From the NCBI GenBank assembly GCA_040767425.1, contig JAXGON010000003.1, positions 22,440-86,439 of the forward strand: a stretch of DNA of 64,000 bases, given 5' to 3'. This document shows positions 1 to 21,977 of the stretch, one piece after another (position 1 is the stretch's first letter; the number at the start of each line of letters is the position of its first letter). The position numbers were made by a program, and so were the translations under genes. The stretch comes from Anaerolineae bacterium. Its GTDB lineage: Bacteria; Chloroflexota; Anaerolineae; UBA1429. A model generated the notes under the pieces. That model ran no database searches. It saw only the letters and a list, made by a program, of their open reading frames with translations, and was not told where the DNA came from.

Positions 1-801
1 AGCCGCGGTTGCCCTGGGCACTGCCGTTTTTGCATCAAGCATGTCTCCTACGGCGAGTCGGTTCGCTTCCGCTCACCAGAGCACGTCCTGGCCGAGATCG
101 AGCAGATTACCCGTTTGGGCGTGCGCGACGTCCATATGTACGCTGACCTGTTCACGGTGAGCCGCGAGCACGTCATGGGGATATGCGAGGGCTTGCAGCG
201 CCTGGAGCGGCCGATCCGCTGGACCTGCAACAGCCGCGTGGACTTTTGCGACCAAGAGATGCTTCAGACCATGGCCCGCGCCGGGTGCTGGATGATCTCA
301 TGGGGCATCGAATCCGGCGACCCGGACATGCTTCGTCGCATGCGCAAGGGCACCACCCTGGAGGCGATCGAGCAGGCCGTCCGGTGGTCGCGAGAAGCCG
401 GCATCAAGAACTGGGGCTACTTTATCATCGGTCTCCCCGGCGAGACCGAAGCGTCCATCCGACGCACCATCGACCTGGCCAAGCGACTCCCGCTGGACCT
501 GGCCCTCTTTCATATCGCCGCGCCGCATCCGGGCACGCCCTTCTTTTTCGAGGTAGTGGAGAACGGTTGGTTTCGACCGGGAACTCAGTGGGAGGCCGTG
601 GACATGGACCGCTCCACCGTCCTCGACTATCCCAACCTATCGGCCGAGGAGCTGGTTCAGTGGGCCCAACGCGCCTTTCGCGAATGGGCGCTGCGTCCCG
701 GTCCGCTCTGGACCTATCTCAAGATGGTGGCAACCAGCCCATCTTTGTGGCGGACCGCCGCCGAGATCGGGTTAGAGAGCCTGGGCTGGGCCAAGGGATG
801 A
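1..801 (+). CDS. Radical SAM domain protein (B12-binding radical SAM type), 5'-truncated at the window edge.
   Basis: Frame 1 reads through from base 1 (..CPGHCRFCIKHVSYGE..) and contains the C-x3-C-x2-C-like radical SAM cysteine motif. It continues as the 228-aa ORF ending at TGA 799-801, with no start codon inside the window. Confidence 0.75.
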   Translation, partial: SRGCPGHCRFCIKHVSYGESVRFRSPEHVLAEIEQITRLGVRDVHMYADLFTVSREHVMGICEGLQRLERPIRWTCNSRVDFCDQEMLQTMARAGCWMISWGIESGDPDMLRRMRKGTTLEAIEQAVRWSREAGIKNWGYFIIGLPGETEASIRRTIDLAKRLPLDLALFHIAAPHPGTPFFFEVVENGWFRPGTQWEAVDMDRSTVLDYPNLSAEELVQWAQRAFREWALRPGPLWTYLKMVATSPSLWRTAAEIGLESLGWAKG

Positions 802-2735
802 TGGTGCCGACCATGGGTGAGCAGATGACGGCAAAGCGATGGGCGGCGGCTCTGGAGCGAACCGAGCTTTGCTTGGCGCTGCTGGCCGTCGGGCTGGCGT
901 TTGCCGCCGGCGAGCGCATCCCGCAGATGGCCGCTGTGCTGGGACCCACTCTGGTGGCGCTGCTGGGCCTTTTGTGGGGGGCGGGCTGGATGCTCAACGG
1001 CACCCGTCCCCGCATCCCCCCACTCACCGTGCCGGTGCTTCTGTTTCTACTCTCGGCGGGCATCGGGCTCTGGGCCAGCTATGACCGCGAAACGGCGTGG
1101 CCCATCTTTGGCCTGATCCTCTGTGGCACCGGCCTCTTCTGGGCCGCGGCGCGGAGCGCAACCCCCACCCGGCTCTATGCTGTGCTGGCGGCTATGGGGC
1201 TGCTGACGACCTGCCTGGCGATCGGGTTCCTGGCGGGCGACCCCTGGGCCACCCATGACGTCAAGGTGCCTTTGCTGGCAGACTTCGGGAGCCGCGTGGC
1301 ACGCTATTTTCCGAGGCCCGTCGCTGCGACCATGAACCCCAACTGGGCCGGCGGCCTGTTGGCGGCGTCGCTGCCCTGGTTCGTGCCCCTGCTGGCTTTG
1401 GAGCCAGGCCCACTCGCCAACCGACCCCGTCTACGCTGGATGCGCTGGCCACTGGTGGTGGGTTGGAGCCTAGGCATCGGCATCGTCATGCTTGGTCTGG
1501 TGGTGAGCGCGTCGCGGGGAGCTTGGCTGGCGACGTTGGCTACCGGATCAGCGTGGGCCATCTGGCGCCTCTCCCGCAAGCACAACCTGAAACACCGTCT
1601 GGGCATGTTGGGGCTGGCCGGCGGCATCGTCGCACTCGCGGCGGTCGGGGTCGGCAGCCTTATCTGGACCCGCCAGTGGCCCGGGGCGCAGGCTCTGGCT
1701 AGCCGCGTCGCGATTTACCGGTTTCTGCCGACACTGGCCCGCGACTATGCCTATACCGGGGCTGGCCTGACCGGCTTTGACATGCAGTTCTCGACCTATG
1801 CTCTGCTGATCCACGTCGGCTACCTGACCTACGGCCACACCATGCTGCTGGACATCCTGATCGCCCAGGGCATCCTTGGCTTGGCAAGCTATGCCGCCGC
1901 GGTGATTGGTAGCGTGCTCCTCGCCAGCCGCGTCATACGGCAGACGCGCGAACCGCTGGCGCTGGCGGCCGAGGCAGCCTTGGCCAGCCTCACCATTCTC
2001 CTGCTGCACAGCCTGGTCGATGATGTCTTTTACCAGGGCCGCGGGCTGCTGCTGCTCTGGGTGCCGATGGCCACGCTGGCCGCGCTCTCTAGCATGGCCG
2101 GGCCGGTGGGATCGCCGACCCCGATGGTAGCCCCGTCTCGCGTGGGTCAGATGGCCCTCCTGGCGGTGGGCGTGGTCGTGATGGCGTTCCTGGGCATGCG
2201 ATGGCGATCGATCCTGGCCGGCATCCACGCCAACCTAGGCGCCGTGGCCCAGGCCAAGGTCGAGCTGGCGGCCTACGATCCCGAGGCCCGCCCCTGGCTT
2301 AGCTTGGACGCGATTCGCAACGAGGAGGATCTTGGCCCGGCGATCGAGCAGTTTGAGCGTGCCCTAGCTTACGACTCCGCGCAGCTCACCGCGCGCCAGC
2401 GGTTGGCTGGCATCCACTTGGCAAGGGGCCAGGCCGCCCAAGCCCGCACCCATATGGATCAAACCTGGCAGGCTGGACATCGCGATCCGACCACCCGGCT
2501 GCTCTACGGCGACGCGTTGGTTGCCACGGGTGACGCCGTTGGGGCCGCCCAGGCGATCGGCGGCCAGCCTCGAGCGGCCGACCGCCTGCTGCTCCAGGCG
2601 TGGGATCGCTATTGGGAACAGGAGCGGTGGCAGGAGGCCCATGCCGCCTGGGAGGCCGTCCTGTTGATCGAGCCCAAGCACCAGCACGCGGCCTACTGGG
2701 CCGACCAGGCGCGCCAGCGGTTGGCGACGCCATGA
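798..2735 (+). CDS. O-antigen ligase (WaaL/Wzy-like) family polytopic membrane protein with a C-terminal TPR-like region.
   Basis: The 850-aa ORF begins as off-frame Arg/Pro-rich overlap with the upstream gene. The plausible start is ATG 798, an ATGA overlap with the upstream stop. The product has about 10 predicted TM helices, an O-antigen ligase-like core (..WAGGLLAASLPW.., ..SRGAWLA..) and a C-terminal helical-repeat (TPR-like) tail. Confidence 0.65.
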   Translation: MMVPTMGEQMTAKRWAAALERTELCLALLAVGLAFAAGERIPQMAAVLGPTLVALLGLLWGAGWMLNGTRPRIPPLTVPVLLFLLSAGIGLWASYDRETAWPIFGLILCGTGLFWAAARSATPTRLYAVLAAMGLLTTCLAIGFLAGDPWATHDVKVPLLADFGSRVARYFPRPVAATMNPNWAGGLLAASLPWFVPLLALEPGPLANRPRLRWMRWPLVVGWSLGIGIVMLGLVVSASRGAWLATLATGSAWAIWRLSRKHNLKHRLGMLGLAGGIVALAAVGVGSLIWTRQWPGAQALASRVAIYRFLPTLARDYAYTGAGLTGFDMQFSTYALLIHVGYLTYGHTMLLDILIAQGILGLASYAAAVIGSVLLASRVIRQTREPLALAAEAALASLTILLLHSLVDDVFYQGRGLLLLWVPMATLAALSSMAGPVGSPTPMVAPSRVGQMALLAVGVVVMAFLGMRWRSILAGIHANLGAVAQAKVELAAYDPEARPWLSLDAIRNEEDLGPAIEQFERALAYDSAQLTARQRLAGIHLARGQAAQARTHMDQTWQAGHRDPTTRLLYGDALVATGDAVGAAQAIGGQPRAADRLLLQAWDRYWEQERWQEAHAAWEAVLLIEPKHQHAAYWADQARQRLATP

Positions 2736-2748
2736 TAGCAGGTACACC

Positions 2749-5490
2749 GTGAACCCACAGGCTCCCCCTCGAAAGTGGCCTCAAAGCGATACGCGACGCT
2801 GGAAAGCGACCGCTCTCCTCATCATCCTGCTTGCCGCCCTCGCCGCACCAGTCCAGGGCCAAGCGCCCGCTCAGGAGTGGTCCTTTACCACCAACCTGTC
2901 GCGCTCGGGCTCGGCAGCCGATCCGGTCTTGGTGTTGGGGCCCGAAGGAACCATGCAAGCCTTCTGGTGGGATCGTTTCGACGGGCTGATGACGGCCGCT
3001 ATGGACGGGATCGCCTGGCAGGCGGCCACTCCTGCCAACCTGTTGGTTCCCGATCCCAGAGCCATCGCACCGGTGAATGTTGAGGAGCCGCCTGCCCTCA
3101 TCCCCATCGGCATGATGCCACAGATGGTGGCCGATGGCCAAGGGAACGTACACGCCTTTTGGCTGGTCGAGCGCGGCGGATTCGCCGCCCGCACGACCGA
3201 CCCTGTGCCGGCAGCCCCCTCGCTGGCCCACGCCAGTTCGCCCATGGGAGCGTTGGAATGGTCGCAAGCGGAGCTTCTCGTCGAAGGCGCCTTGACCTGG
3301 CGAGTCTTTGCGGATCCCGACGGCGGCCTGCACCTGGCCTATATTCGGACTCTGCACAGCGAGGATCAGCCGGCCGGAGTTTACTACACCCGGCTGGATG
3401 GCGAAACGCTCCAGTGGGAGACGCCACGCCTGGCTCAAGCCAGCATCTATGCCCGGCTGCTCAGCGCCGATGAGGCGCGAGTGGCGGGTGTGGCCAATGG
3501 GACTGGGACGGTGGTACTGGCCTGGTGCGACCCTCGGATGGGAGAGCCGACCTATCTTTGCTCCAGTGACAGCGGCGAGACATGGCGCACCGCCGCTGCT
3601 CCCCTGGAGCATGCCAGCCATCCAGCCCTGGCCTATCTCGGCCCCGGCCGCCTGGTTGCCATCTGGCAGGTAGGGCTCAGCGACAACCAGGTCTCTCATT
3701 ACCAGCAGGTCTCGACCGACGCCGGGCTAACCTGGGGCGAACCGAGGTGGGTTCCCCGCGAGGCCGCCCGCTATGGCGCGCCAGCGCTCCGCCAAGCGGG
3801 GTGGGCTGGCGATGCGTGGCTCGTCTCTGGCGAGGGTGGACCCTATCTTTCGCTCTGTCGCTGGCGCCCCGATCCGTCAGCCGATGCAGGCCAGGGTGAA
3901 TGGTCGTTGGCCAACACGGTGGCCATCAACATCCACGATATCGAGACCGAGCGGACCGTCTCGCTGGAAGAACTCCAGATGGCGGTAGACGACCACTGGC
4001 TGCACGTGGTCGGACGGGGCCAGGATGGCGAGGTGTGGGCCATGCGGCGCGAGACCAGCGGCATCGCCTGGGCATTCTCCTCCGATACTCCTTGGACCGA
4101 ACCGCTCGCCATCTGGGAGGACAATGCGGGAGCCGACATGCCGGCCTTGGTAGGCGACGCCGACGGCACGGTCCACGCCTGGTGGATCGCCGCGGCCGAC
4201 GTGGGGCGATCCGGCGTCGCTCTCTGGTACGCGCAGCGAACGGGAGACGAGTGGTCACCCGCCGCCGCCATCTTTGCCCTAGAGGAGCAGGCCCAGCATC
4301 CCACGGCGACGTTGGTCGAGGGCCGCGTGCATCTGCTGTGGACCTCGGGACGGGTCGGCACCATCGGGCATAGCAGCGTCTTTCAGGATCGGGCCGCGAC
4401 GGCCTCCGAATGGACGACGGTCCGACGGCTGCCCCTGCCCACCGAGGCTGGCGGAGCATCCTCTCCCCAGCTAGTAGCCGACGGCGAGGGCGGACTACAT
4501 GCAATCTACTCCGTCCCCCTCAACGAGAGCCGCGGCATCTACTATGTGCACTCGGAAGATGGAGGCAGCAGTTGGTCCGATCCAATCGCAGTGGTCCACG
4601 CCGCCGAGGCGGGCTGGCCCAGCGTGGATACGCCCGATCTGGCCATCGCAGGGGACGGCTCGCTGTGGGCAACCTGGATCAAGGTGCCGTTGACCGACGG
4701 GCACGGCGAGGCCGTCTACCTGGCGCGCTCTACCGACGGCGGCGCCACTTGGTCGCCGCCCTTGCTGGTCTTCGAGGGGCCGTGTTCGGAGCCACGCCTG
4801 GCCCTCTCGGGCCCAGCGGACCTCCATCTCTTCTGGGTCGATGAAACCGATGCGCGGGTCTGGTCCTACCGCCAATCGGCCGACGGCGGGGCCACCTGGA
4901 CCCCCATCGAGACGGTGCCCGGCATGAGCGGCCTTCGTGGCTCGCCCGACCTGGCCTATGATGCCGGTGGCTTCGTTTACTTGATGGGCGTCAGCTACGA
5001 GGCCAGCGATGGCTGGTTGATGCGACATGCCTCGTGGGACGCGGACAGCTCGGCATGGTCCGACGTAGGGCGGTTTCGGCTCAGTGCCCTATACCAACCC
5101 CGCGGAGGCGTCTCTTTGGCCCTGTTGCCAGAGCGCGGTCAGCTGCACGCCCTGCTGACAGCCAAGAGCCCCGATGCTAATGCCGAGCCAGCTCTGCTCC
5201 ATGCCTACCGGGCTGTCACACCCACCGAGCCGTACCGCCCCGTCGTCGTTCGCTCAGTGGCGAGCGAGATCGAGCCGGCCGAATCGACAGAACCTGCGCC
5301 CCCACCCACCGCCTGGGTGGCCATCGAACCGGCCCCCGCCGCCGCGTCGGGCATCTCCCTGGGGCCGTTCTTCCTGCCGATGACCGGCGTGTTGGGCATT
5401 GTGGTAGCGGCGGTGATAGTCCTGGTAGTTGCCCTGGTTCACAGCCTGCGGCCTGGCCGGCACTGGCGGTCTTGGACGCGGTCGCGATGA
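2749..5490 (+). CDS. Secreted, C-terminally membrane-anchored BNR/Asp-box repeat protein (sialidase/glycoside-hydrolase-like).
   Basis: GTG start; signal peptide (..ALLIILLAALAAPVQG/QA). It carries multiple Asp-box motifs (SSDSGETW, STDAGLTW, SEDGGSSW, STDGGATW, SADGGATW), a Pro/Glu-rich linker and a C-terminal TM helix (GVLGIVVAAVIVLVVALV). Confidence 0.7.
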   Translation: MNPQAPPRKWPQSDTRRWKATALLIILLAALAAPVQGQAPAQEWSFTTNLSRSGSAADPVLVLGPEGTMQAFWWDRFDGLMTAAMDGIAWQAATPANLLVPDPRAIAPVNVEEPPALIPIGMMPQMVADGQGNVHAFWLVERGGFAARTTDPVPAAPSLAHASSPMGALEWSQAELLVEGALTWRVFADPDGGLHLAYIRTLHSEDQPAGVYYTRLDGETLQWETPRLAQASIYARLLSADEARVAGVANGTGTVVLAWCDPRMGEPTYLCSSDSGETWRTAAAPLEHASHPALAYLGPGRLVAIWQVGLSDNQVSHYQQVSTDAGLTWGEPRWVPREAARYGAPALRQAGWAGDAWLVSGEGGPYLSLCRWRPDPSADAGQGEWSLANTVAINIHDIETERTVSLEELQMAVDDHWLHVVGRGQDGEVWAMRRETSGIAWAFSSDTPWTEPLAIWEDNAGADMPALVGDADGTVHAWWIAAADVGRSGVALWYAQRTGDEWSPAAAIFALEEQAQHPTATLVEGRVHLLWTSGRVGTIGHSSVFQDRAATASEWTTVRRLPLPTEAGGASSPQLVADGEGGLHAIYSVPLNESRGIYYVHSEDGGSSWSDPIAVVHAAEAGWPSVDTPDLAIAGDGSLWATWIKVPLTDGHGEAVYLARSTDGGATWSPPLLVFEGPCSEPRLALSGPADLHLFWVDETDARVWSYRQSADGGATWTPIETVPGMSGLRGSPDLAYDAGGFVYLMGVSYEASDGWLMRHASWDADSSAWSDVGRFRLSALYQPRGGVSLALLPERGQLHALLTAKSPDANAEPALLHAYRAVTPTEPYRPVVVRSVASEIEPAESTEPAPPPTAWVAIEPAPAAASGISLGPFFLPMTGVLGIVVAAVIVLVVALVHSLRPGRHWRSWTRSR

Positions 5491-7070
5491 CCACATCGAT
5501 TCCTGGAGCGGCGATGGAGAGCATCAGCGCCCGGCAATCCAGCCCGCAGCGGAGCAGGACCACGCGGTCGCTGACGGCGACATGGCGCAAGGTCACCCTG
5601 CTCCTGGCGGCCGTTGGGTTGCTGTCGGCGCCGATCCCTCTGTTGGCCCAGGGAGAGACTGTGGCGGTGGACGCGCCGGCCATTACCTGGTCGGCGCCGA
5701 CCAACCTATCGCAATCCTCGCGCAGCTCAGCCTATCCCACCATCGCGGCGGACCAACGCGGGTGGGTTCACGTCTTTTGGAGCCAGGACATGGTTGGGAT
5801 GCCTATGCGCGAGGGCGACCTGCCCACCATCGGCAACGCTATCGCCTACACTCGTTGGGACGGCCACCGCTGGACCCAGCCAGTCGATGTGGTGTCAGTT
5901 CCTGACGAGGCGCTGGCCGGCTTTCCAGAGGTAGCGCTGGACGCCGACGACAACCTGCACCTGGTGTGGATCGGGCAGAGCACGGTCTACTATAGCCGCG
6001 CCCCAGCCCAGGAAGCCGCCTCCACGCACGCCTGGATCAGCCCAGTGGCGGTGGCGCAAGGCAACCTTCCCCGCACCCATCCGGTCGACGTGGCCGTCGA
6101 CCGGGGCGGGGTGATCCATGTGCTGCTGGCGGATAACAGCTTTGAGGGCGCCGCCCGCAGCACGCGATCGCTGGACGGCGGCGCGTCTTGGCGGCCGCTG
6201 CAGGACATCTCGGCCCCCTCCGACCCGCTAGAAACCGGGGTCGCGCGCGTGCAGCTCGCCGTCGACGCGCTGGACCGTCTACACGCCACCTGGCAGACCA
6301 ACCAGGCCGAAGGGTATGGACAGGCCGTCTACTATGCTCGCAGCGTGGACGGGGGCCAGACCTGGAACACTCCGCAACGCTTTGGCTACCGTGACCCGGG
6401 CGAGATCTTTGTCGAGTACCTCACGCTGGCCAGCCGCGGCAACGACGAGCTGCACTCTTTCTATGTCGATGGAACCGGCATCGGGCGCTGGCATCGTATC
6501 TCCACGGATGGCGGCGAAACGTGGAGCACCGCGCAGCATATCATCACCGACTTGGAGGGGGTGAACGGCTATATGGCGCCGGTGGTGGATGGCGCCGGCC
6601 GGCTTCACCTGATGATCAACATGCGAACCCGCGCCGAGCAGGCGGTAGGCATCTATCACGCCACCTGGCTGGACGGGAACTGGTCGGCCGTCCGGGCGGT
6701 CGATGACAGCAGCCCTGCCGCTCCATCGGCCCACGCCGCCGTAGCCACCGTGCGGCTTGGCTGTGAGATTCATGTAGCCTACGTGCAGCTGGCCGGCGGT
6801 GAGATCTGGCATGTTCGTGGCACCATCTCAGACGTCGAGCCACAGCCAACCATCGGCGCGGCGGCGGGAGCTCTGGCTCCGCTACCCACCGTCGCCGTGC
6901 CTACACCGCCGTTTGACGCCATCGAGCCTACTGCCGTAGCGCGGCTCTCCCTGCCCGCAGAAGCAGAGGCTCCCGGAGGGCGATTGGTCTGGGTAGTGGG
7001 GCTCATGACGGCGGCAGCGTTGGTCGTGGGCGTGTCCTGGCGCCGGCTTGCGGGAGCGCAGAGACGATGA
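5487..7070 (+). CDS. Second BNR/Asp-box repeat protein, a paralog of the upstream gene, with signal peptide and C-terminal TM anchor.
   Basis: ATG 5487 overlaps the upstream stop (ATGA). Asp-boxes SLDGGASW, SVDGGQTW, STDGGETW; signal peptide ..LLLAAVGLLSAPIPLLAQG; C-terminal TM (VWVVGLMTAAALVVGV). It shares N-terminal motifs with the upstream gene (..TNLSQS../..TNLSRS.., ..W.HVFW..). Confidence 0.7.
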   Translation: MTTSIPGAAMESISARQSSPQRSRTTRSLTATWRKVTLLLAAVGLLSAPIPLLAQGETVAVDAPAITWSAPTNLSQSSRSSAYPTIAADQRGWVHVFWSQDMVGMPMREGDLPTIGNAIAYTRWDGHRWTQPVDVVSVPDEALAGFPEVALDADDNLHLVWIGQSTVYYSRAPAQEAASTHAWISPVAVAQGNLPRTHPVDVAVDRGGVIHVLLADNSFEGAARSTRSLDGGASWRPLQDISAPSDPLETGVARVQLAVDALDRLHATWQTNQAEGYGQAVYYARSVDGGQTWNTPQRFGYRDPGEIFVEYLTLASRGNDELHSFYVDGTGIGRWHRISTDGGETWSTAQHIITDLEGVNGYMAPVVDGAGRLHLMINMRTRAEQAVGIYHATWLDGNWSAVRAVDDSSPAAPSAHAAVATVRLGCEIHVAYVQLAGGEIWHVRGTISDVEPQPTIGAAAGALAPLPTVAVPTPPFDAIEPTAVARLSLPAEAEAPGGRLVWVVGLMTAAALVVGVSWRRLAGAQRR

Positions 7071-7104
7071 CGACCGCTAAGGCGCAACTGCCGAAAGGGG
7101 GCGC

Positions 7105-8409
7105 ATGCGCATCCTGTTCGTGACCAGCCACTATGCTCCATCGCCGCATGGCGGGGGGTATGGCCAACTCTGCGAAGAGGTGGCCAATGGCCTGCATGCC
7201 CGCGGCCATCAGGTGGCGGTGCTCACCAGCACCTATGGCGCACAGGATGGTGATCTACACCCGTACCCGGTCATGCGACGCCTGTCCATCGATCCCGACT
7301 GGCACAGTGCTCGCAGCGCGGCCTGGCAGTTCTGGCTGCAGCGACGCGGTCGAGAGCGACGAGCCCTCGGCGCCCTGCGTGACGTTGTTGCCTCCTTCTA
7401 TCCGGACGCCATCTACGTCTGGGATGCCGTCGGCCTGCCCCGCGAGCTGCTCCGCGAGGCCGAGGACAGATCCGGCGTGCCAACCGCCTACTACCTCGCC
7501 AACTATGCGCCCGAGTTGGCGGACGAGTACCAGGCCTACTGGCAGGCCGCCCCGAGCTCTCCCCTGGCTCGCCTGCTGAAGCGGCCCGTTGCTTCTCTGG
7601 CCCTGGCTGCCCTGCGACGCGAAGGCAAGCCGGTGCCAGTCCGCTACCAAGAGACCGCCTGTGTCAGCGACTATGTGCGGCAGCGACTGCACGCTCAAGG
7701 TCTCATCGGGGCCGGCTCGGTGGTGATCCACAATGGTGTCGACCTGGCGGCCTTTGGCCGATCCGACGGTGGGGAGACATCCGCCCTAACGCGGCCGCTG
7801 CGCTGCCTGGTGGCTGGCCGAGTGGACCCGGAAAAGGGTGTTCATACGGTGGTACAAGCCCTCGGCCTGCTGGCGCAGCATCACGCCCCGCACCTAGCCA
7901 CCTTGACCATCCTCGGCGATGGGCCAGCGGCCTATGGCGCGTCTCTGCGCAGAGCCGTGAGCCTCCAGGGGATGGACGCCATCGTGCAGCTCCGCCCCGG
8001 GATCCCCCGCGCCCAGATGCCCAGCATCCTTGAGGGACACGATACCCTGATCCTCGCTTCCGAGTACGCCGAGCCGCTGGCTCGGGCGGCCCAAGAGGCC
8101 ATGGCCATGGGGCTCCTAGTGGTGGGCACCATCACCGGCGGCAGTGGCGAGCTGTTGGTCCACGAGCAGACCGGTCTGGCCTTTGACGCTGGAGACCCTG
8201 CCTCATTGGCCCAGCAGATCGAGCGAGCCGCAAAGAACCCCGAGCTAGCCCGCCGCCTGGCAAGGGCGGGCAGAGACGCCGTGCGTGAGCGGTTCGATAT
8301 CGGCCGCACGGTGCTTGAGACCGAGCGCTACCTGCAAGACCTGGTGGACGGCAAGCCGGCTGTTGATGTCGCTGGTACCCACAACGACACGCCCAGCGAG
8401 GCAGCATGA
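7105..8409 (+). CDS. Glycosyltransferase family 4 (GT4, GT-B fold).
   Basis: N-terminus MRILFVTSHYAPSPHGGGYG is typical of GT4. The C-terminal half contains a sugar-donor binding E-x7-E-like region. RBS AAAGGGGG at 7094-7101. Confidence 0.85.
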   Translation: MRILFVTSHYAPSPHGGGYGQLCEEVANGLHARGHQVAVLTSTYGAQDGDLHPYPVMRRLSIDPDWHSARSAAWQFWLQRRGRERRALGALRDVVASFYPDAIYVWDAVGLPRELLREAEDRSGVPTAYYLANYAPELADEYQAYWQAAPSSPLARLLKRPVASLALAALRREGKPVPVRYQETACVSDYVRQRLHAQGLIGAGSVVIHNGVDLAAFGRSDGGETSALTRPLRCLVAGRVDPEKGVHTVVQALGLLAQHHAPHLATLTILGDGPAAYGASLRRAVSLQGMDAIVQLRPGIPRAQMPSILEGHDTLILASEYAEPLARAAQEAMAMGLLVVGTITGGSGELLVHEQTGLAFDAGDPASLAQQIERAAKNPELARRLARAGRDAVRERFDIGRTVLETERYLQDLVDGKPAVDVAGTHNDTPSEAA

Positions 8410-9608
8410 GAATCTTGGCGGTCTGCACCTGGTGTCCCTACCCACCCAACAACGGGTCACGCATTCGCACGTACCATCTCCTTCGGGCGCTAGCCCGCCA
8501 GCACGAAGTCGATGCGGTGGCGTTCTGCCCCGATGACGACCCATCCCGGTGGCCCACGCCCATCCCAGGCCTGGAGCGCGTTCACCTGGATCCCGTGGCC
8601 GATGACCCGTTCCGGTATGTTTCGGCGCCCAGTTGGGTCAAGTTCGTCTCACCCGTGCCGCTCTGCTTTGTCCCCAGCCGCCGGTTCGGGCGGGCGGCGC
8701 GCCAACGTGCGCACCGCCCGTATGACGCCGTGGTGGCGATGAACACGCCAGCGGCATGGCCCGCCCTTCGCGCCGCCAAGGCCGCGCGCGTGCTGGACGT
8801 GGATTCGGCCCTGTGCTTTTTGATGCGCGATCGGCATCTGCAGGGCGAGGATGGCCGCCTGCGCACCCGCATCAGTTGGTGGAAGGCTGAACAAGCCGAG
8901 GGCTGGTTGATGCAGCGCTTTGATACCTGCACCTTTACCACCATACGAGAGGCCGACTTTATGCGCCATGTGGTGCGCCATAGCGACTGCCAGGTGCGCG
9001 TCATCCCCAACGGTGTCGACTGCGACCATTACCGCCCGTCGAACGCCCCACGGGTGCCCGCCCAACTGATCTATACTGGAGCGCTGACGTATAGCGCCAA
9101 CTATGACGCCATGCGCCATTTTACCGATAGCATCTACCCGCTAATCCGCGATAAAGAGCCTGAGGCGTCCTTGGTGATCACGGGCTCACACAAGGGCGTG
9201 GACCTGTCGCGGCTTTCCCTGGATTCCAGCGTGCGCCTGACCGGCTATGTGGACGATGTCCGCCCATGGGTGCAAGCGAGCCGCGTATGCGTCGTTCCGC
9301 TGCGTCAAGGCGGTGGCACCAGAATAAAGATCCTCGAGGCCATGGCGTTGGGCACTCCAGTGGTTGCCACGTCCAAAGGGATGGAGGGGCTGGACGTCAT
9401 CGCCGAAGAGCACCTCTTGGTGGCGGACGAGCCGGCCGACTTTGCCCGGCAGACGGTGCGCCTGCTGCGCGACGACGCCCTGGCCCAAGGCCTCGCCGAG
9501 CGGGCGCGCCAGCTAGTCGTTGAGCGCTATGAGTGGCGTGCCATCGGCCACGACTTTGTTGACCTGGTGGAAGAGGCGGTGGGGCGGCATCAGAGGGGAT
9601 CGGCATGA
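8406..9608 (+). CDS. Glycosyltransferase family 4 (GT4).
   Basis: MRILAVCTWCPYPPNNGSRIRTYHLLRALA.. N-terminus and GT-B C-terminal domain (..EGLDVIAEEHLLV..). ATG 8406 overlaps the upstream stop (ATGA). Confidence 0.8.
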   Translation: MRILAVCTWCPYPPNNGSRIRTYHLLRALARQHEVDAVAFCPDDDPSRWPTPIPGLERVHLDPVADDPFRYVSAPSWVKFVSPVPLCFVPSRRFGRAARQRAHRPYDAVVAMNTPAAWPALRAAKAARVLDVDSALCFLMRDRHLQGEDGRLRTRISWWKAEQAEGWLMQRFDTCTFTTIREADFMRHVVRHSDCQVRVIPNGVDCDHYRPSNAPRVPAQLIYTGALTYSANYDAMRHFTDSIYPLIRDKEPEASLVITGSHKGVDLSRLSLDSSVRLTGYVDDVRPWVQASRVCVVPLRQGGGTRIKILEAMALGTPVVATSKGMEGLDVIAEEHLLVADEPADFARQTVRLLRDDALAQGLAERARQLVVERYEWRAIGHDFVDLVEEAVGRHQRGSA

Positions 9609-11008
9609 CCGACGCCCGGCAGCAGGGTTCCGAGCGAAACCACTGGACCTCTATGGCGGTGGTGGCCGCGACGCTATTCGCCGCCACCCTGCTGGGGATG
9701 TATCCGCGGCATCTCTACCTGCTGGCCGCGGGGGCCGTGCCGGTAGGGTTGGCACTCCTGTGGCGACCCTATTGGGCGCTGGCGCTCCTGATCATCACGG
9801 CGATGTTGGTCCCGGTAGAGTTCGGCACCGGCACCGCTGTGGCCATCAACGGCGCCGTGATGATGGTACCCGCCGCCCTGGCGGTCTGGATCATCGACAT
9901 GGCGCGGCGCCGTGGCCTGGCTTGGACATCAGCGGCCGCCAACCGCCCCCTGGCGCTGTTCCTGCTCGCCGGAGTCGTCTCTCTGGTCGCTGGCAACATG
10001 TTCTGGGATCCGGCGGTTCCCCGCCCCGCCAACCTGGTCGTGGTACAGTGGGCACAGTGGGGCATGTTCGCCCTGTCTGGTCTCGCTTTTTGGTTGATGG
10101 GCAATATGGTCGAGGACGAGGAGGCCTTGCGGGTCCTCACCTGGCTCTTTTTGGGGATCGGCGGCACCATGGCGCTCCTGCGAACCATCCGCTGGTTCTG
10201 GCCCCTAGGTTGGTCGATCGGCACCATGGGCCTCTACCGCGCGCCCTTTTGGGTGCTGCTGGCCAGCATGGCAGGGGGCCAACTATTTCATAACCGTGAT
10301 CTCAAGGCTGGCCAACGCGCGTTCCTCATCTGTGTACTGGTGGCCGTGCTTTACTATGCGGGGGTCATGGAGCGTCGTTCCACCTCTACCTGGGTGGGAG
10401 TGGCCCTAGCGCTGGGGCTGCTGCTCTGGATGCGTTTCCCCAAGGTGGGGTGGGGAGGACTGGTGCTGCTATTGCTGGCGGCCCCCATGGTGGGAACACT
10501 GATTTATGAGTTCGCGGGCGGGGCCGCCAAGTGGGACGAGAGTGGGGGGTCGCGCCTGGTGCTCATCGGCCGCGTAGTAGGGGTCGCCATGCGCAACCCC
10601 ATCACCGGCTTGGGCCCGGCCTCGTACCGATCCTACGCCGCTGTCGAGCCGCTCGCGTACCAAGGCGCCCTCTGGCTCGACCCGCTGGTCAGTTCGCACA
10701 ACAACTATGCCGACCTATTCGCCCATGTGGGCTTGCTCGGGTTGGGTCTCTTTGCGTGGTTCATCATCGCCCTGGCGCGGCTGAACGCCCGCCTCTGTCG
10801 CACCTACGAGAGCGGCTTTCTACGGGGCTATGTCTGCGGGGTGGCCGCGTCGCTGGGGGCCAGCCTCGTCATCATGCTGCTGGCAGACTGGGTGCTGCCC
10901 TTTGTCTACAACATCGGCTTTGAGGGCTTTCAGGCCAGCGTCCTGCTGTGGTTGTTCTGGGGCGGTCTGGTGGCAATCTCTCAGTGGACCCCAACGGGAG
11001 CGACATGA
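9605..11008 (+). CDS. O-antigen polymerase/ligase (Wzy/WaaL-like) family polytopic membrane protein.
   Basis: 467 aa with about 11-12 predicted TM helices and a Wzy_C-like region (..MERRSTSTWVGVALALGLLLW..). ATGA overlap with the upstream gene. Confidence 0.65.
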   Translation: MTDARQQGSERNHWTSMAVVAATLFAATLLGMYPRHLYLLAAGAVPVGLALLWRPYWALALLIITAMLVPVEFGTGTAVAINGAVMMVPAALAVWIIDMARRRGLAWTSAAANRPLALFLLAGVVSLVAGNMFWDPAVPRPANLVVVQWAQWGMFALSGLAFWLMGNMVEDEEALRVLTWLFLGIGGTMALLRTIRWFWPLGWSIGTMGLYRAPFWVLLASMAGGQLFHNRDLKAGQRAFLICVLVAVLYYAGVMERRSTSTWVGVALALGLLLWMRFPKVGWGGLVLLLLAAPMVGTLIYEFAGGAAKWDESGGSRLVLIGRVVGVAMRNPITGLGPASYRSYAAVEPLAYQGALWLDPLVSSHNNYADLFAHVGLLGLGLFAWFIIALARLNARLCRTYESGFLRGYVCGVAASLGASLVIMLLADWVLPFVYNIGFEGFQASVLLWLFWGGLVAISQWTPTGAT

Positions 11009-11952
11009 CCGATCTATCGATCGTGATCGTCAACTGGAACACGTCGGCCCTGCTTCGGGGCTGCTTGCGGTCCATCTATGGTCAGGCCAGCTCCCCGTCG
11101 CTGGAGGTCTTGGTCGTCGATAACGCCTCGTTGGACGACAGCGTGGCCATGGTCCGCCGCGAGTTTGACCAGGTTCGCCTGATCGAGATATCCACCAACC
11201 TGGGCTTTGCCGCCGGCAACAACCTAGCCTTCCCACTGGCTGAGGGCGCCTTCATACTGCTGCTCAATCCCGATACGGTGCTGACCGATGGCGCCCTTTG
11301 CGCCCTTGTGGACATGGCGCGAACGCACCCGGAGGCCGCCATCATCGGCGCCCAGTTGCTCAACGCCGACGGCAGCCTCCAAACGTCGTGCGGTATCTAT
11401 CCCAGCATCTGGAGCGAGATCCCGCTGGTGAGGAGCCTAGCCGAGGGGCTGGATCGCCTCTCGCTGGGAAGCAACCATCGCGCTGAACCCGACATCCGAT
11501 CCGTCGACTGGGTATCAGGCGCGTGCCTTCTGATCCGGCAGGAGGCCCTCCAGGCCATCGGCCCCCTGGACGAGAGCTACTGGCTCTATACCGAGGAGAC
11601 CGATTGGTGCTATCGAGCCCGCCGAGTCGGCTGGGACGTGCTCTTAGCGCCCAGCGCGCGCGTGTATCACTTGGCCCGCGCCGCCTCGGGCCAGCGCTTT
11701 GTGTTCTCGATGCTGCACTTTTACCAGTCCAGGGTGCGGTTTGCTCACAAGCACTATGGAGCCGCCCATGCCGCCGCGCTGCAACGGCTGTACGGCCTTA
11801 AAGCGCTGATGTGGCAACGTCGGCCCGAGAGTTCGCCGCTCCGCAAGGCCTACGAGAACCTCTCGGACGAACAGATCCGCGCAGCCTACGGCACGTTGCG
11901 CCGCGCTCTGGCCAGTTCGCTGACCACCTATCTGGAGAGCAGTTGGTCATGA
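11005..11952 (+). CDS. Glycosyltransferase family 2 (GT2, GT-A fold).
   Basis: MTDLSIVIVNWNTSALLRGCLRSI..VVDNASLDDS.. is the classic GT2 N-terminus with DxD (LLNPDTV). ATG 11005 overlaps the upstream stop. The upstream 57 codons of the tracked ORF are off-frame overlap. Confidence 0.8.
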   Translation: MTDLSIVIVNWNTSALLRGCLRSIYGQASSPSLEVLVVDNASLDDSVAMVRREFDQVRLIEISTNLGFAAGNNLAFPLAEGAFILLLNPDTVLTDGALCALVDMARTHPEAAIIGAQLLNADGSLQTSCGIYPSIWSEIPLVRSLAEGLDRLSLGSNHRAEPDIRSVDWVSGACLLIRQEALQAIGPLDESYWLYTEETDWCYRARRVGWDVLLAPSARVYHLARAASGQRFVFSMLHFYQSRVRFAHKHYGAAHAAALQRLYGLKALMWQRRPESSPLRKAYENLSDEQIRAAYGTLRRALASSLTTYLESSWS

Positions 11953-13103
11953 TGGCGATAGACTTTCAGGTAGCATCCAGCGTGGACGCGCAAGCGCCCC
12001 ACCCGCTGCCGACCTGGAACGCCACGGTGCAAGCCGCTGGTGAGCTGATTATCCTGGTGGGACCGGAGGATCCCCTCCGGGCCGAGTCGATCGCGGGTGG
12101 CCTCGCCCCGCGCCTCGAGTACCGGATGATCGCCGACCGGTGGGCTGGCAGCCAGGTGCAGCAGTGGCGACCGCCAGCGGCCGGCGTTATCGGCGGCCGG
12201 CTCGCCGGCCTGCTCCACACCCTGCCAAGGAATCTGGCGCTAGCACGGCGGCTGGCGCGCGGGCTTGGGCCCAACAGCGTCGTCTTCTCTACCGGCGAGA
12301 CCTGGGGGCTTCCGCTGGCCCTGATTGCCGCCTTACGACGCCGTCGCCCGTGGGCCCATGTGGTCTACGCCCACCGCCTCTACTCGCCGCGATGGCAGCG
12401 TTTCCTGGCCGCCTCCCATCGGCGCCTGGCGGTGGACGCCTGGATCTGTGCGACCGAGCATCAAGCCAGCCTGCTTCGCCACGTGCTGGGCCGGCCTGAG
12501 GCAGTTCACGTGGTGTCACCCGGAGTCGACACAGCGTTCTTTGCCCCAGCGAGGAACCCGGCACCAGAGCGGCGCTATCTCCTCTCGGTGGGAGCGGAAA
12601 TGCGCAACTACCCGCTGCTGTTTGATGCGGTGCGTGATCTCCCCATCGACGTCATCGTCAAAGCTTCCAGCGCCTGGATGGCGGCATCGCGCGAGGCGCT
12701 GCACGCCGCCCCGGCGAACGTGCAGATCATCACCGAGCGCCTGTCCTATGCCCAGCTGTATGACCTGTACGCCGGCGCGTTCGCCGTGGTGGCACCCGTG
12801 CTGGATACGCCCCAGGCCGCCGGCATCACGACCATCCTGGAGGGCATGGCCATGCAGAAATGCGTGATCGCCACCCGGTCGCGCGGCCTGCCGGACACGC
12901 TCATCCACGGCGAGACCGGCATCGTCTGTGATGCCACGGCCGAGGCGCTGGCAGAGGCGCTCGCGTCGGTGCTGGCATCGCCCAATGTCGAGGCCTTGGC
13001 GCTGGCGGGGCGCCACGCCGTGTGCCGCGCAGCGTCCATCGAAGAGCATGCGTGCCGGGTCACCAGCATCCTGGCCCAAACGCTCGCGAGTAGAGTGCCG
13101 TGA
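11949..13103 (+). CDS. GT4-like glycosyltransferase (GT-B fold).
   Basis: ATG 11949 (MMAIDFQ..) overlaps the upstream stop (ATGA). The C-terminal domain has ..GITTILEGMAMQKCVIATRSRGLPDTLIHGETGIV.., typical of GT4 donor-binding domains. The N-terminal domain is divergent. Confidence 0.65.
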   Translation: MMAIDFQVASSVDAQAPHPLPTWNATVQAAGELIILVGPEDPLRAESIAGGLAPRLEYRMIADRWAGSQVQQWRPPAAGVIGGRLAGLLHTLPRNLALARRLARGLGPNSVVFSTGETWGLPLALIAALRRRRPWAHVVYAHRLYSPRWQRFLAASHRRLAVDAWICATEHQASLLRHVLGRPEAVHVVSPGVDTAFFAPARNPAPERRYLLSVGAEMRNYPLLFDAVRDLPIDVIVKASSAWMAASREALHAAPANVQIITERLSYAQLYDLYAGAFAVVAPVLDTPQAAGITTILEGMAMQKCVIATRSRGLPDTLIHGETGIVCDATAEALAEALASVLASPNVEALALAGRHAVCRAASIEEHACRVTSILAQTLASRVP

Positions 13104-13178
13104 CCAAACCAGCCGACGTGGCCAAGCGTATCGCGTCGGGCGGGATAGCCCGATAGATCCGCAGGAGGGATCGAACCC

Positions 13179-14276
13179 GTGCGTATCTGTTACGCCCTGC
13201 TCTCGCCGACCTTTGGCATGCACCAGTACACCGCTGATCTGGCGGCTACGCTGGGGCGAGCGGGGCATACGGTCCAACTGGCGACTACCGACCGCTATCC
13301 GCATGATCGTTACGATCCCGCCATGGCGGTCATCTGCCCATCATCGGCACAGGACACGGGCTACTCGCTCGACGCCGCCCGGCCCGGGGCGTGCGCGCAG
13401 ATCGTCCGCTCCATCGAGGCGCTACAGCCCGAAGTGGTCCACCTTACCGGCCCCCACGTCTGGAACGTTGGCGTGATGCGAGGCTTGGCGCGCCGGGGCA
13501 TTCCCGTCGTTCACACCCTGCACGACCTGGACCCCCACGCCGGCGGGGCCTATGGCCGATTGGTGCACCAGTGGAACCGCGCGGTGCTGCGCTGGTCCGA
13601 CCAGATCCTGGTCCACGGGCGCTGTTACCGCCAGCGCCTTTTGCAGGAGGGCATGGCACCGGAGCGGGTCTGCTACACGCCGCTGCTGCATCTCTTTGTC
13701 GGTCACCACAGCCTGCCAGAGGCTGGTGCCAAGGCCGACGCACCTCTCTACGAGCCCTTTCTCCTCTTCTTTGGTCGCATCGAGCCCTACAAGGGCCTCG
13801 ACCATCTGCTGGCCGCCTGGCAACGGGCGGACGTGGCCGACGCCACGCTGATGATCGCTGGGCCTGGAGAGCTGGCCCGCTGTTGGAGCGAGCCGCTCCC
13901 TCCCCGCGTCGAGCTCCGCAACCACCTGATCGGCGACGCCGAGGCGATCGAGCTATTCCAACGGTGCAGTGCCGTCGTCTTGCCCTACACCCGCGCCAGC
14001 CAGTCGGCGCTGGTGGCTGCAGCCTACCATTTTCAGAAGCCGGTGCTAGTCTCAACGTCGGGCGCCTTGCCCGAGTATGTCGAATCTGGCGAGACGGGCT
14101 GGCTGGTCGACCCTCACGACGAGCCTGCCCTCACCGAGGCCCTACGTCAGGCCCTGGAGGATCCGGCTCGGTTGCGACGCATGGGAGCGGCCGGCCGTAG
14201 GTGGTACGAGGAGCAGCGCCAGCGCGAAAGAACGGACCTGGAAGCCATGTACCGACGGGTGGTGGGCAGTGATTGA
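13179..14276 (+). CDS. Glycosyltransferase family 4 (GT4).
   Basis: GTG start 11 nt downstream of AGGAGG (13163-13168). MRICYALLSPTFGMHQYT..; C-terminal ..EPYKGLDHLL..LMIAGPGE..GETGWLVDPHDEPALTEAL.. is the GT4 signature. Confidence 0.8.
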   Translation: MRICYALLSPTFGMHQYTADLAATLGRAGHTVQLATTDRYPHDRYDPAMAVICPSSAQDTGYSLDAARPGACAQIVRSIEALQPEVVHLTGPHVWNVGVMRGLARRGIPVVHTLHDLDPHAGGAYGRLVHQWNRAVLRWSDQILVHGRCYRQRLLQEGMAPERVCYTPLLHLFVGHHSLPEAGAKADAPLYEPFLLFFGRIEPYKGLDHLLAAWQRADVADATLMIAGPGELARCWSEPLPPRVELRNHLIGDAEAIELFQRCSAVVLPYTRASQSALVAAAYHFQKPVLVSTSGALPEYVESGETGWLVDPHDEPALTEALRQALEDPARLRRMGAAGRRWYEEQRQRERTDLEAMYRRVVGSD

Positions 14277-14381
14277 TGCGAAGGCCGTCGGGCATGGTAA
14301 CCGGGGCGCGACCGCGGAGACCGGCGTGCCGTTGCCTGCCATCGCCTCTGCTGATCCACCACCGATGAGGATGGACTGGCC

Positions 14382-15629
14382 ATGGTAGCATTGGTACCGC
14401 TCCACAACTCGGCGATCCTGCTGGCGGCCATATTGCTGGCGCTTGTAGAGGCAGCCGCCATCGCCAGCCTGCTCTACCACGGCGTCCTGCTCATTGCCGG
14501 GGCAGCGCATCCTCGGCGGCCTGTCGGCCAGAGTGGCGGCACGCCGCATCTGGCGGTGGTCGTCCCCGCCCACAACGAAGAGACGGTCATCGCAGCGACG
14601 ATGGCCGCCGCTCGGTCGCAGCAGTACCCCCCGGATCGGATCGACGTCTATGTCGTCGCCGACTATTGCTCCGACGCCACGGCAGCGCGGGCCCGCCAGT
14701 CTGGCGCCACCTGCCTGGAGCGCAACGATGGGCCGCGTGGACGCAAGGCCTATGCGCTCCAGTGGGGGTTGGCGGAGCTTCTGGCCAGTGAGCCCACCTT
14801 GGATGCCTTTGTGGTGATCGACGCCGACAGTCAGCTCGAGCCCACCTTTGCAGCCACCATGGCCTCGCACCTCCAATCTGGACAGCCGGTGCTGCAGGGC
14901 CAACACCGAATCGCCAACCCTCGGGACAGCGCGTTCACGGGGCTGGCCGATGTGGATATGCGCATCAACAACCTGCTCCGAAACCAGGCCAAGGGCGCCC
15001 TTGGCCTCTCGGGCCGCCTCATGGGCGACGCCATGTGCTTTGCCAGAGAGATCATCGAAGCGTTCGGTTGGCCGACGGAGACCATCACGGAGGATCGCGA
15101 GTTCGGCCTCTTCCTGGGGCTGCGAGGTATTCGCACCGTCTATGTGCCCGACGCGATCTCGCGGGGGCAGGCAGCCGGACGTTGGCAGGACGCCTCCAAG
15201 CAGCGGATGCGATGGTACGCGGGCATGCGCCAGGTGCGCCTCGCCCGGCTGGGGACGCTCTGGAGAGCCGCGTGGCGGGGAAATCCGGTGGCCCTGGATG
15301 GCCTCCTGGAGCTGGCGCTGCCTTCGATCTCGCTTTCCACGCTGTTTTCGGTGGTCGCGGCGGCCATCCAGGTGGCGTTTCCCGCCTGGCCGTGGCTCCT
15401 GCCGACCGAGCTGGTCCTGGTTGTCAGCGCGCTCTGGATCCTGTTCCCAATAGCGGCCCTCCTGGCTGCGAGGGCACCCTGGGCCAGCTTTCGCGCCCTC
15501 CTTTGGGGGCCGATCTACCTGGTCTGGCGGGTATGGATCGGCCTGCGAGCGCGCCTGGGCCGCAGCAAGGGAGAGTGGGTTCGGACGCGAAGACGAGAGG
15601 AAGCCCAAGGGGGGATTGGTGAGAGCTGA
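14382..15629 (+). CDS. Membrane-embedded processive-type GT2 glycosyltransferase (cellulose-synthase/PgaC-like).
   Basis: N-terminal TM; ..LAVVVPAHNEETVI..; DAD motif (VIDADSQ); Q-R-M-R-W (QxxRW) motif, then 4-5 C-terminal TM helices. Confidence 0.75.
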   Translation: MVALVPLHNSAILLAAILLALVEAAAIASLLYHGVLLIAGAAHPRRPVGQSGGTPHLAVVVPAHNEETVIAATMAAARSQQYPPDRIDVYVVADYCSDATAARARQSGATCLERNDGPRGRKAYALQWGLAELLASEPTLDAFVVIDADSQLEPTFAATMASHLQSGQPVLQGQHRIANPRDSAFTGLADVDMRINNLLRNQAKGALGLSGRLMGDAMCFAREIIEAFGWPTETITEDREFGLFLGLRGIRTVYVPDAISRGQAAGRWQDASKQRMRWYAGMRQVRLARLGTLWRAAWRGNPVALDGLLELALPSISLSTLFSVVAAAIQVAFPAWPWLLPTELVLVVSALWILFPIAALLAARAPWASFRALLWGPIYLVWRVWIGLRARLGRSKGEWVRTRRREEAQGGIGES

Positions 15630-16977: not shown

Positions 16978-17058
16978 GACCCCAGACCGAGACCCGAGCG
17001 AGGTGGAAGATGGCGAGCCAGCCCGGCCAATGGCTCACAAAGCGATAGGGTGGTCGTA

Positions 17059-18891: not shown

Positions 18892-18905
18892 ACCCCCATA
18901 AAGAC

Positions 18906-18940
18906 GGCGGTCGGCACGACGGAGGGTCGCGCCGACCGCC
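18906..18940. terminator. Perfect 10-bp inverted repeat between convergent genes (candidate bidirectional terminator).
   Basis: GGCGGTCGGC (18906-18915) / GCCGACCGCC (18931-18940) with a 15-nt loop, between the 18891 (+) and 18957 (-) gene ends. Confidence 0.45.
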
Positions 18941-18956
18941 ATCAAACGCTACGGAG

Positions 18957-21974: not shown

Positions 21975-21977
21975 CCC

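Follow-up and report, generated by a model that had tools for sequence, protein, structure and literature searches.

Membrane-tethered seven-bladed BNR propellers accompany surface-glycan assembly genes in Chloroflexota and may recognize the exported polymer

Filamentous bacteria of the Anaerolineae and other Chloroflexota abound in sludge, sediments, and hot springs. Their envelope is poorly understood, and we know of no post-export step of their surface-glycan pathways that has been assigned. Here, we describe two neighboring genes, A and B, found in a 64,000-nucleotide stretch of contig JAXGON010000003.1 from an Anaerolineae bacterium (the window herein). Each encodes a membrane-tethered propeller protein of the BNR/Asp-box type, and both lie within a glycan-assembly locus. 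The two genes, their overlap, and the segments of their products are listed below, where residues are numbered in amino acids (aa), strict Asp-boxes are matches to SxDxGxxW, and pLDDT is the predicted local distance difference test score of AlphaFold2 models.

2749-5490, plus strand: gene A, a two-propeller BNR/Asp-box ectoprotein of 913 aa (open reading frame with a GTG start; BNR_2 match of 49.9 bits)
2749-2862, plus strand: signal peptide of A, aa 1-38, with the h-region at about 17-35 and the end PVQG/Q (hydropathy; model helix 14-30)
2878-4059, plus strand: N-terminal seven-bladed propeller of A, aa ~44-437, with the N49-L-S51 motif and strict Asp-boxes at aa 272 and 322 (DSSP strands; invariant columns)
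4093-5223, plus strand: C-terminal seven-bladed propeller of A, aa ~449-825, the half closest to B, with strict Asp-boxes at aa 602, 661, and 710 (BLASTP; DSSP)
5224-5379, plus strand: stalk of A, aa 826-877, Pro/Glu/Ala-rich, disordered, and ending LGPFFLPMTG (pLDDT <50 at aa 836-865; composition)
5380-5487, plus strand: C-terminal transmembrane helix of A (aa 878-899) and Arg-rich tail (hydropathy; model helix 878-899)
5487-5490, plus strand: ATGA stop/start overlap of A and B (read from the sequence; holds if B starts at 5487)
5487-7070, plus strand: gene B, a single-propeller BNR/Asp-box ectoprotein of 527 aa (open reading frame with an in-frame ATG at 5487; BNR_2 match of 36.8 bits)
5682-6827, plus strand: seven-bladed propeller of B, aa 66-447, with strict Asp-boxes at aa 228, 286, and 339 (DSSP; Foldseek)
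6828-6977, plus strand: stalk of B, aa 448-497, Pro/Ala/Thr-rich and disordered (pLDDT 45-53; composition)
6978-7067, plus strand: C-terminal transmembrane helix of B (aa 498-520) and basic tail (model helix 498-526; hydropathy)

Both reading frames are present and both products exceed the Pfam BNR_2 gathering cutoff of 31.4 bits, which bears out a preliminary description of this DNA as holding two adjacent same-strand genes for Asp-box propellers. The start of A is the same as that of the NCBI protein P0121 (100% identity and coverage). For B, the start decides whether the two genes are coupled by an ATGA overlap as had been proposed: the sequence does read ATGA at 5487-5490, and the overlap is plausible, but it is lost with the start of the deposited protein P0001, whose 518 aa match the next in-frame ATG at 5514 and leave a 23-nucleotide gap instead. 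When the products were compared by BLASTP, the second half of A gave the better alignment to B (27% identity, E 2e-20) and the first half a weaker one; A is thus a two-domain paralog of B. The description of the genes as duplicated paralogs therefore stands as far as paralogy goes, but not as a recent tandem duplication; the paralogy is genuine but old, and A and B belong to two separate families with different conserved partners, Wzy_C-TPR for A and Wzm/Wzt for B.

Structure prediction gave propellers for both proteins, each seven-bladed, with two in A and one in B. The AlphaFold2 model of B, built from an 86-sequence alignment, has a mean pLDDT of 87 with a core at 93-98, and its propeller is closed by the N-terminal strand 66-68. 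The model of A reached a pLDDT of 80.7, and the mutual placement of its two propellers is uncertain (predicted TM-score, pTM, 0.52). Both sequences begin with a hydrophobic signal followed by an AxA/Q-type site. Across the families, a C-terminal transmembrane helix is found in 86/86 B-type and 28/29 A-type proteins, preceded by a stalk with a median length of 53 aa and a composition of 20-22% Pro, 12-16% Thr, 13-15% Ala, and 8-10% Ser. Taken together, the confident models (pLDDT 87 and 81) and hydropathy agree with the earlier picture of extracytoplasmic propellers on an anchored stalk. A and B are surface proteins of type-I topology, with a Sec signal that is removed, propellers outside on a flexible stalk of about 50 residues, and one C-terminal helix, trailed by a few basic residues, that holds them in the membrane.

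The junctions flanking the propellers carry conserved motifs of their own. Directly after the propeller-closing strand, a near-invariant W-[ST]-x-P-x-N-[LIV]-S is common to both families and corresponds to N49-L-S51 in A (2893-2901) and N73-L-S75 in B (5703-5711). The N-[LIV]-S element looks like an N-glycosylation sequon, but its middle residue is hydrophobic in every case, which points to a loop with a structural or functional role. At the other end, A carries LPMTG (5374-5388, aa 876-880) followed by the transmembrane helix and RPGRHWRSWTRSR, formally a sortase-type LPXTG sorting signal. LP[MLI]TG is present in the four closest relatives of A, and LPLTS, LPLIA, or no such motif in the rest of the A family; an LPXTG-type motif was not found in B. 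When six C-terminal tails were searched in isolation, no NCBIfam sorting-signal model (PEP-CTERM, LPXTG, and others) matched. B-type proteins share PL[LI]PGxG at the start of the transmembrane helix and a W.R.RSR tail.

The genes around A and B were assigned mainly by Pfam, with GT denoting glycosyltransferase families:

1-801, plus strand: 3' part of a radical-SAM gene, the first gene of a conserved module (phmmer, 455 bits to the radical-SAM protein of the related locus L007)
798-2735, plus strand: Wzy_C (O-antigen-ligase-like) membrane protein with C-terminal TPR (Wzy_C 33.2 bits and TPR_19 27.6 bits, both above cutoff)
7105-18891, plus strand: downstream run of GT4, GT4, Wzy_C, GT2, GT4, GT4, GT2, PMT_2, and co-polymerase genes
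9605-11008, plus strand: second Wzy_C, without TPR, in this run
15616-16977, plus strand: PMT_2-type GT-C in this run
17050-18891, plus strand: Wzz/GNVR/P-loop tyrosine-kinase-type co-polymerase (PCP kinase) in this run

A and B thus lie where the preliminary description placed them, between an O-antigen-ligase-like gene (Wzy_C with TPR, 798-2735) and a glycosyltransferase run that starts at 7105. The radical-SAM and Wzy_C-TPR genes are also joined by an ATGA overlap, at 798-801. A promoter and terminator scan of positions 1-19500 returned no promoter-like sites and no intergenic terminators, and no flippase was identified in the window.

We compared 25 related loci anchored on B, all of which (25/25) have a glycan-locus context. 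In about 18 of the 25, B is followed directly by the exporter genes Wzm and Wzt, at a B-wzm spacing of -13 to +7 nucleotides where genes were called, and a PS_pyruv_trans (pyruvyltransferase) gene usually lies a bit further downstream together with GT2 and GT4 genes. The full cassette is seen in L007 and L015, where the order is Bac_transf ... GT2 - radical SAM - Wzy_C-TPR - (PMT_2-like GT-C) - A - B - Wzm - Wzt - ... pyruvyltransferase - glycosyltransferases. The A-B pair is kept as in the window in L010 (88%), L011 (72%), and L001 (55%), the sequences of L010 and L011 stopping at or just after the end of B. Past B, the window and L001 have no Wzm/Wzt and instead carry a second Wzy_C, a PMT_2, and a PCP kinase. 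This points to a change of export route with retention of the radical-SAM/Wzy_C-TPR/A/B cassette. Even distant B-like proteins (26-33% identity) were found in glycan loci in 3/3 cases, with Wzm/Wzt(+Wzt_C), Wzy_C, PMT_2, Bac_transf, or PCP kinase genes.

A second sample, anchored on the radical-SAM gene and not on B, consisted of 80 metagenome loci. An A-type gene follows radical-SAM and Wzy_C-TPR directly in 15/15 informative loci, those in which Wzy_C-TPR comes straight after the radical-SAM gene and the sequence runs far enough, plus three truncated cases. B is often missing from these loci, and the A-type gene then lies directly 5' of wzm (L028, L054, and L055). Hence, the pair or one of its two members recurs across Chloroflexota glycan loci. 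A goes with Wzy_C-TPR and B with the exporter, in a module that is accessory, not obligatory.

Over the same genome pairs, the median identities were 74% for radical SAM, 64% for Wzm, 53% for Wzt, 44% for B, 43% for the pyruvyltransferase, 36% for Wzy_C-TPR, 32% for GT-C, and 31% for A. By this measure, B is as constrained as a pathway enzyme, and A evolves at the rate of the accompanying membrane enzymes. The radical-SAM protein is the most conserved product of the module (74% against 31-64% for the others).

Homologs of B at E<=1e-3 numbered 129 in a database clustered at 90%, most of them 470-535 aa long, and the top 86 are full-length down to 36% identity. The few that are named are called "exo-alpha-sialidase," "glycoside hydrolase," "sialidase family protein," or "hypothetical," and come from metagenome-assembled genomes (MAGs) labeled Chloroflexota, Anaerolineae, or Anaerolineales. 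For A, we found 24 homologs of either ~850-940 aa or ~1250-1380 aa, with ortholog identities from 85 to 24%. All 16 of the 16 loci in species-representative genomes are from Chloroflexota (Anaerolineae, Anaerolineales, Caldilineales/Caldilineaceae, Thermoflexus, and MAGs labeled "Chloroflexia"). In an exhaustive profile search, clusters formed at 50% identity numbered 1,845 at E<=1e-30 and 8,280 at E<=1e-10, in lengths that fit one, two, or three propellers. The A and B families are large and specific to Chloroflexota. Our literature search turned up no earlier description in which Wzy_C-TPR and Wzm/Wzt have transmembrane-tethered, seven-bladed BNR propellers for conserved partners.

We considered whether the ~1300-aa relatives are fusions of A and B and rejected this: in P0126 the N terminus of A finds its match at residue 460, with a further propeller of the type that opens A on its N-terminal side. 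These long forms are three-propeller A-type proteins. Proteins of this kind (~1300-1420 aa) stand in place of the A-B pair in L009 (5580-9470 of that locus), L028 (13556-17533), L066, L069, and L073, and the three-propeller gene of L028 lies directly 5' of wzm-wzt.

To place the propellers among characterized proteins, we searched the PDB with both models using Foldseek. Only propellers were matched, at 13-17% identity. The top match of A was the PL42 lyase FoRham1 (7esk, TM-score 0.65). B matched Dfer_1899 (function unknown), Photorhabdus lectins with TM-scores up to 0.78, BT3686 at 0.67, and six-bladed sialidases at 0.34-0.58; the value for 5muk was a TMt of 0.67. Over FoRham1, BT3686, and the PLL and PHL lectins, the best matches, TM-scores ran from 0.64 to 0.78. 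The two-propeller xyloglucanases of GH74, in which two seven-bladed propellers pack into a substrate cleft, gave A TM-scores of only 0.20-0.30, to be read with the low inter-domain confidence of the A model (pTM 0.52). GH43 and F510_1955 matches of A were set aside, since both fall far under their cutoffs.

The highest TM-scores belong to the seven-bladed lectins PLL and PHL of Photorhabdus (up to 0.78 when normalized to the lectin, root-mean-square deviation 4-5 Å). These lectins differ from A and B in being soluble and only ~340 aa long, and their identity to A and B is 13-17%. PLL and PHL are not known to have Asp-boxes. By analogy, a non-catalytic sugar-binding propeller in the style of these lectins may be taken as a viable model for A and B.

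Among enzymes, PL42 (formerly GH145, with FoRham1 and BT3686) and the PL24/PL25 ulvan lyases resemble A and B in having a seven-bladed propeller, in being the best or near-best structural matches, and in sharing blade motifs; "D..G.(L/I)H.(S/V)W" and "YARS.D.G.TW" are common to B and PL42. At the family level, BNR_2 matched 85/86 members of the B family and BNR_4 matched 53/86, the B protein of the window falling below the BNR_4 cutoff. In these propeller lyases, an Arg neutralizer and a His or Tyr act on uronate substrates at the anterior face, and FoRham1 uses a catalytic His, a neighboring His, and an Arg neutralizer there (His85/His105/Arg166) (PMC8377490). We looked for the PL42 His pair in B and found that "FDHHG" of 5mum lies opposite "WIGQS" (family consensus TGQ) in a weak phmmer alignment (E ~0.3) that takes the common LHL..W and Y.RS motifs as its anchors. 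Membership in PL42 was rejected on this basis, a soft negative given the alignment. A and B differ further from PL42/PL24/PL25 in their identity of 13-16%, their membrane tether, and their place in biosynthesis loci. A site with Arg and His on the anterior face is plausible. Overall, A and B are BNR-superfamily propellers that are distantly nearest the PL42/BNR_4 branch and belong to no characterized enzyme family.

The preliminary description had also called the pair sialidase-like and proposed a search for sialidase catalytic residues, namely the Arg triad, the Tyr/Glu nucleophile pair, and the Asp acid/base. The likeness to GH33/BNR_2 sialidases amounts to a BNR_2 match above the gathering score and to a beta-propeller whose loops between strands 3 and 4 carry Asp-box repeats, a feature that many non-sialidase families have too. 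In the enzymatic sense, the label is not supported. The FRIP motif ([FYWL]R[IV]P) was present in 0/86 B-type and 1/29 A-type proteins, matches of the B-family profile to solved sialidases were confined to Asp-box segments, and A and B have seven blades (GH33 has six), no FRIP/Arg-triad signature, a C-terminal transmembrane anchor, and a biosynthetic rather than catabolic gene context. We rejected a GH33 exo-alpha-sialidase identity on blade number, the missing FRIP, and the restriction of matches to Asp-boxes.

We then asked where conservation falls on B, classing its residues by their place in the propeller as strands A-D, bottom loops (A-B and C-D), or top loops (B-C and D-A). Conservation was dominated by repeated structural motifs on the Asp-box face. 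The anterior face was not enriched overall; its top-face loops were the most variable class, with only a few residues invariant. Those few are polar or charged. S75, S81, N117, E249, R334, R380, H416, and E439 are invariant or nearly so in 73 B orthologs and lie at top-face positions; the invariant Glu, Arg, Arg, His, and Glu sit in D-A or B-C loops or at strand starts, which places them on the anterior face by propeller topology. A non-propeller fold or the lack of any conserved pocket, which would have counted against the preliminary description, is not what the models and the orthogroup-invariant polar residues on the predicted anterior face of B indicate. Position 100 is Glu in 76/86 family members ("FWSE[ED]") and Gln only in the B protein of the window (5784-5786) and its 88% relative. 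This E100Q lineage is the same lineage that has no Wzm/Wzt and pyruvyltransferase.

Our leading interpretation, which we hold tentatively, is that A and B have a glycan-recognition role and act on the polymer of their own locus after its export. We count toward it the fold and topology, the invariant Glu/Arg/Arg/His/Glu residues of B, the glycan-locus context, the close coupling of B to Wzm-Wzt and of A to Wzy_C-TPR, the enzyme-like constraint on B, kinship to carbohydrate-active propellers, the anterior-face Arg and His/Tyr of uronate-acting propeller lyases, and the pyruvyltransferase gene that lies 3' of B in most relatives. A, B, the radical-SAM enzyme, and the Wzy_C-TPR protein co-occur as a conserved Chloroflexota module, and this module would act once the lipid-linked glycan is at the outer face of the membrane, probably delivered by the Wzm/Wzt ABC exporter in most relatives and by a Wzy polymerase and PCP-kinase route in the window. 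The propellers would then recognize the polymer through an anterior-face pocket, predicted in B to comprise E249, R334, R380, H416, E439, and N117, plus E100 (Gln in the window). Two Arg and a His in such a site would suggest an anionic sugar epitope. Having bound it, the propellers may hold or present the chain at the cell surface, or may cut it as a hydrolase or lyase.

Non-catalytic binding and catalysis are roughly equally likely. Cleavage is favored by constraint on B of the kind seen in enzymes, by its constellation of Arg, His, and Glu, and by the kinship to PL42-type lyases. Binding is favored by the lack of a known catalytic set, the loss of the site in distant members, the variable number of propellers, the link to an ABC exporter, and the lectin folds among the nearest structures. 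A and B may have a trimming role like that of PslG or PelA or serve as a non-catalytic scaffold, both raised in the preliminary description. PslG, PelA, BcsZ, and AlgL are likewise extracytoplasmic proteins with a carbohydrate-active type of fold that are encoded within polymer-assembly operons. They differ in that their folds are unrelated and their pathways synthase- or Wzy-dependent, whereas B-type proteins are mostly coupled to Wzm/Wzt and catalysis by A or B is only putative.

Several observations weigh against a glycan-recognition role. Wzm/Wzt and the pyruvyltransferase are absent from the whole window, and the E100Q replacement alters one candidate residue there. The candidate residues are mostly lost (8-38% retention) in 13 distant members that are also found in glycan loci, and their closeness in three dimensions, in one pocket, is a prediction from strand topology. 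At the level of loci, 17/34 related radical-SAM loci with at least 6 kb downstream have no BNR-family open reading frame even by hidden Markov model search, and those with propellers have anywhere from one to three. No catalytic signature of a characterized family was found in A or B when FRIP and the PL42 His residues were compared, and to our knowledge ABC-transporter-dependent pathways do not need a glycanase. Lastly, we found nothing on the A/B family, and no experiment on any member, in the full-text literature.

Extended further, the glycan-recognition reading would make A and B an unrecognized class of extracytoplasmic surface-glycan component in monoderm Chloroflexota, in which tethered propellers take the polymer from Wzm/Wzt or Wzy and fix or tailor it with the Wzy_C-TPR ligase. 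Such proteins would be either a new CAZy-type family, with a catalytic set of its own on the anterior face and an anionic (e.g., pyruvylated) glycan as substrate, or a lectin anchor that replaces covalent attachment of the LCP/WaaL type. We regard this wider proposal as doubtful. If the propellers do bind or cut the polymer, they would offer a handle on how a monoderm that lacks lipopolysaccharide retains or tailors an ABC-exported glycan and could yield a new carbohydrate-active family.

The main alternative, which the preliminary description did not raise and which we judge rather unlikely, is that A and B are acceptor glycoproteins: anchored, S-layer-like proteins whose Pro/Thr/Ser-rich stalks would be O-glycosylated by the Wzy_C-TPR protein, acting as an O-oligosaccharyltransferase, or by the PMT_2-type GT-C. 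The comparison is with the S-layer glycosylation (slg) clusters of Geobacillus stearothermophilus and Paenibacillus alvei (SgsE/SpaA, WsaB/WsfB, Wzm/Wzt), which share with the cassette a WbaP-like initiator, glycosyltransferases, Wzm/Wzt, Wzy_C-TPR, and a surface-protein gene. In these clusters, Wzm/Wzt export the chain and a Wzy_C O-oligosaccharyltransferase moves it to a surface protein encoded by the cluster; the transferases WsfB and PglL consist of Wzy_C with C-terminal TPR, and the cluster is depicted together with the S-layer gene (PMC2943079). The gene set of the canonical relatives (Bac_transf, glycosyltransferases, Wzm/Wzt, and Wzy_C with C-terminal TPR) matches that of the slg clusters, and the window has a Wzy_C enzyme with C-terminal TPR (798-2735) next to the candidate acceptor gene, as in the WsfB/PglL architecture. 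A directly follows Wzy_C-TPR in 15/15 informative loci, an arrangement that resembles the adjacency of pilA and pilO in Pseudomonas.

Also consistent with acceptors are the universal stalks rich in Pro, Thr, Ser, and Ala, the PMT_2-like GT-C genes that recur as immediate neighbors, and the flexible number of propellers per locus. Among the Chloroflexota are monoderms whose outer layers resemble S-layers and whose surface filaments are O-glycosylated (PMC12488501), which fits this explanation as well. Against it, B is conserved like the cytoplasmic enzymes of the same locus and has an invariant polar constellation, which is unusual for an exposed structural surface protein. SgsE and SpaA are neither BNR propellers nor anchored by a transmembrane helix, and the conservation of A and B far exceeds that of typical S-layer proteins. 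In addition, a Pfam scan of the Wzy_C-TPR protein gave only Wzy_C and TPR families and no family specific to O-oligosaccharyltransferases, and other secreted proteins of related loci have different C termini. Were A and B glycosylated acceptors, they would identify surface glycoproteins of the phylum.

Considerably less probable is that the propellers are protein-binding partner subunits, B for Wzm/Wzt and A for the Wzy_C-TPR ligase, with no direct recognition of glycan. The partner-specific synteny of the two genes would fit this, as would the stop/start overlaps or gaps of <=7 nucleotides between B and wzm and the overlap of A with the upstream membrane-protein gene in some relatives. Ycf48 provides an analogy, being a membrane-tethered, seven-bladed, BNR-like propeller that aids assembly of a membrane complex. 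TPR domains mediate protein-protein contacts (PMC2943079). However, B persists without Wzm/Wzt in the window and in L001, and a flexible stalk of about 50 residues would put a long distance between the propeller and any partner embedded in the membrane.

That A and B are genuine GH33 exo-alpha-sialidases removing sialic-acid-type sugars is highly improbable: the names "exo-alpha-sialidase" or "sialidase family protein" of some NCBI homologs, the BNR_2 and Asp-box matches, and the weak sequence matches to solved sialidases speak for it, and the seven blades, the confinement of those matches to Asp-box segments, the near-total lack of FRIP, TM-scores below those of the seven-bladed lectins and PL42, and the lack of nonulosonic-acid biosynthesis genes in the annotated parts of the window speak against it. 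Whichever of the other explanations applies, the automatic "sialidase" annotation needs correcting. Wzy_C-TPR and Wzm/Wzt genes have as their conserved, membrane-tethered partner a large family that databases label "exo-alpha-sialidase" or "hypothetical protein." The main value of A and B lies in this correction of a widespread misannotation and in the entry point that they offer to Chloroflexota envelope biology.

Beyond the biosynthetic genes, whose same-strand run stops at 18891, the window holds many carbohydrate-utilization genes, which include two GHL6/GH42M-like genes, ABC sugar uptake, a glucuronyl-esterase-like gene, and a GH38 alpha-mannosidase. The stretches concerned are:

18957-21002, minus strand: carbohydrate-utilization stretch
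21087-24508, minus strand: carbohydrate-utilization stretch
28372-29631, plus strand: carbohydrate-utilization stretch
38701-40686, minus strand: carbohydrate-utilization stretch
49954-52674, plus strand: carbohydrate-utilization stretch

Other secreted proteins of related glycan loci carry a similar C-terminal domain whose closing residues, located at the C terminus or close to it, read "...NP(x)3-4 LP.VL[RK]" (L001 2106-3905 and 3902-7096; L006 6979-9990). This domain occurs in a CBM96 protein, in a PQQ-type propeller, and in a 1003-aa protein with a Tat signal, and the ending may be a distinct C-terminal signal of Chloroflexota.

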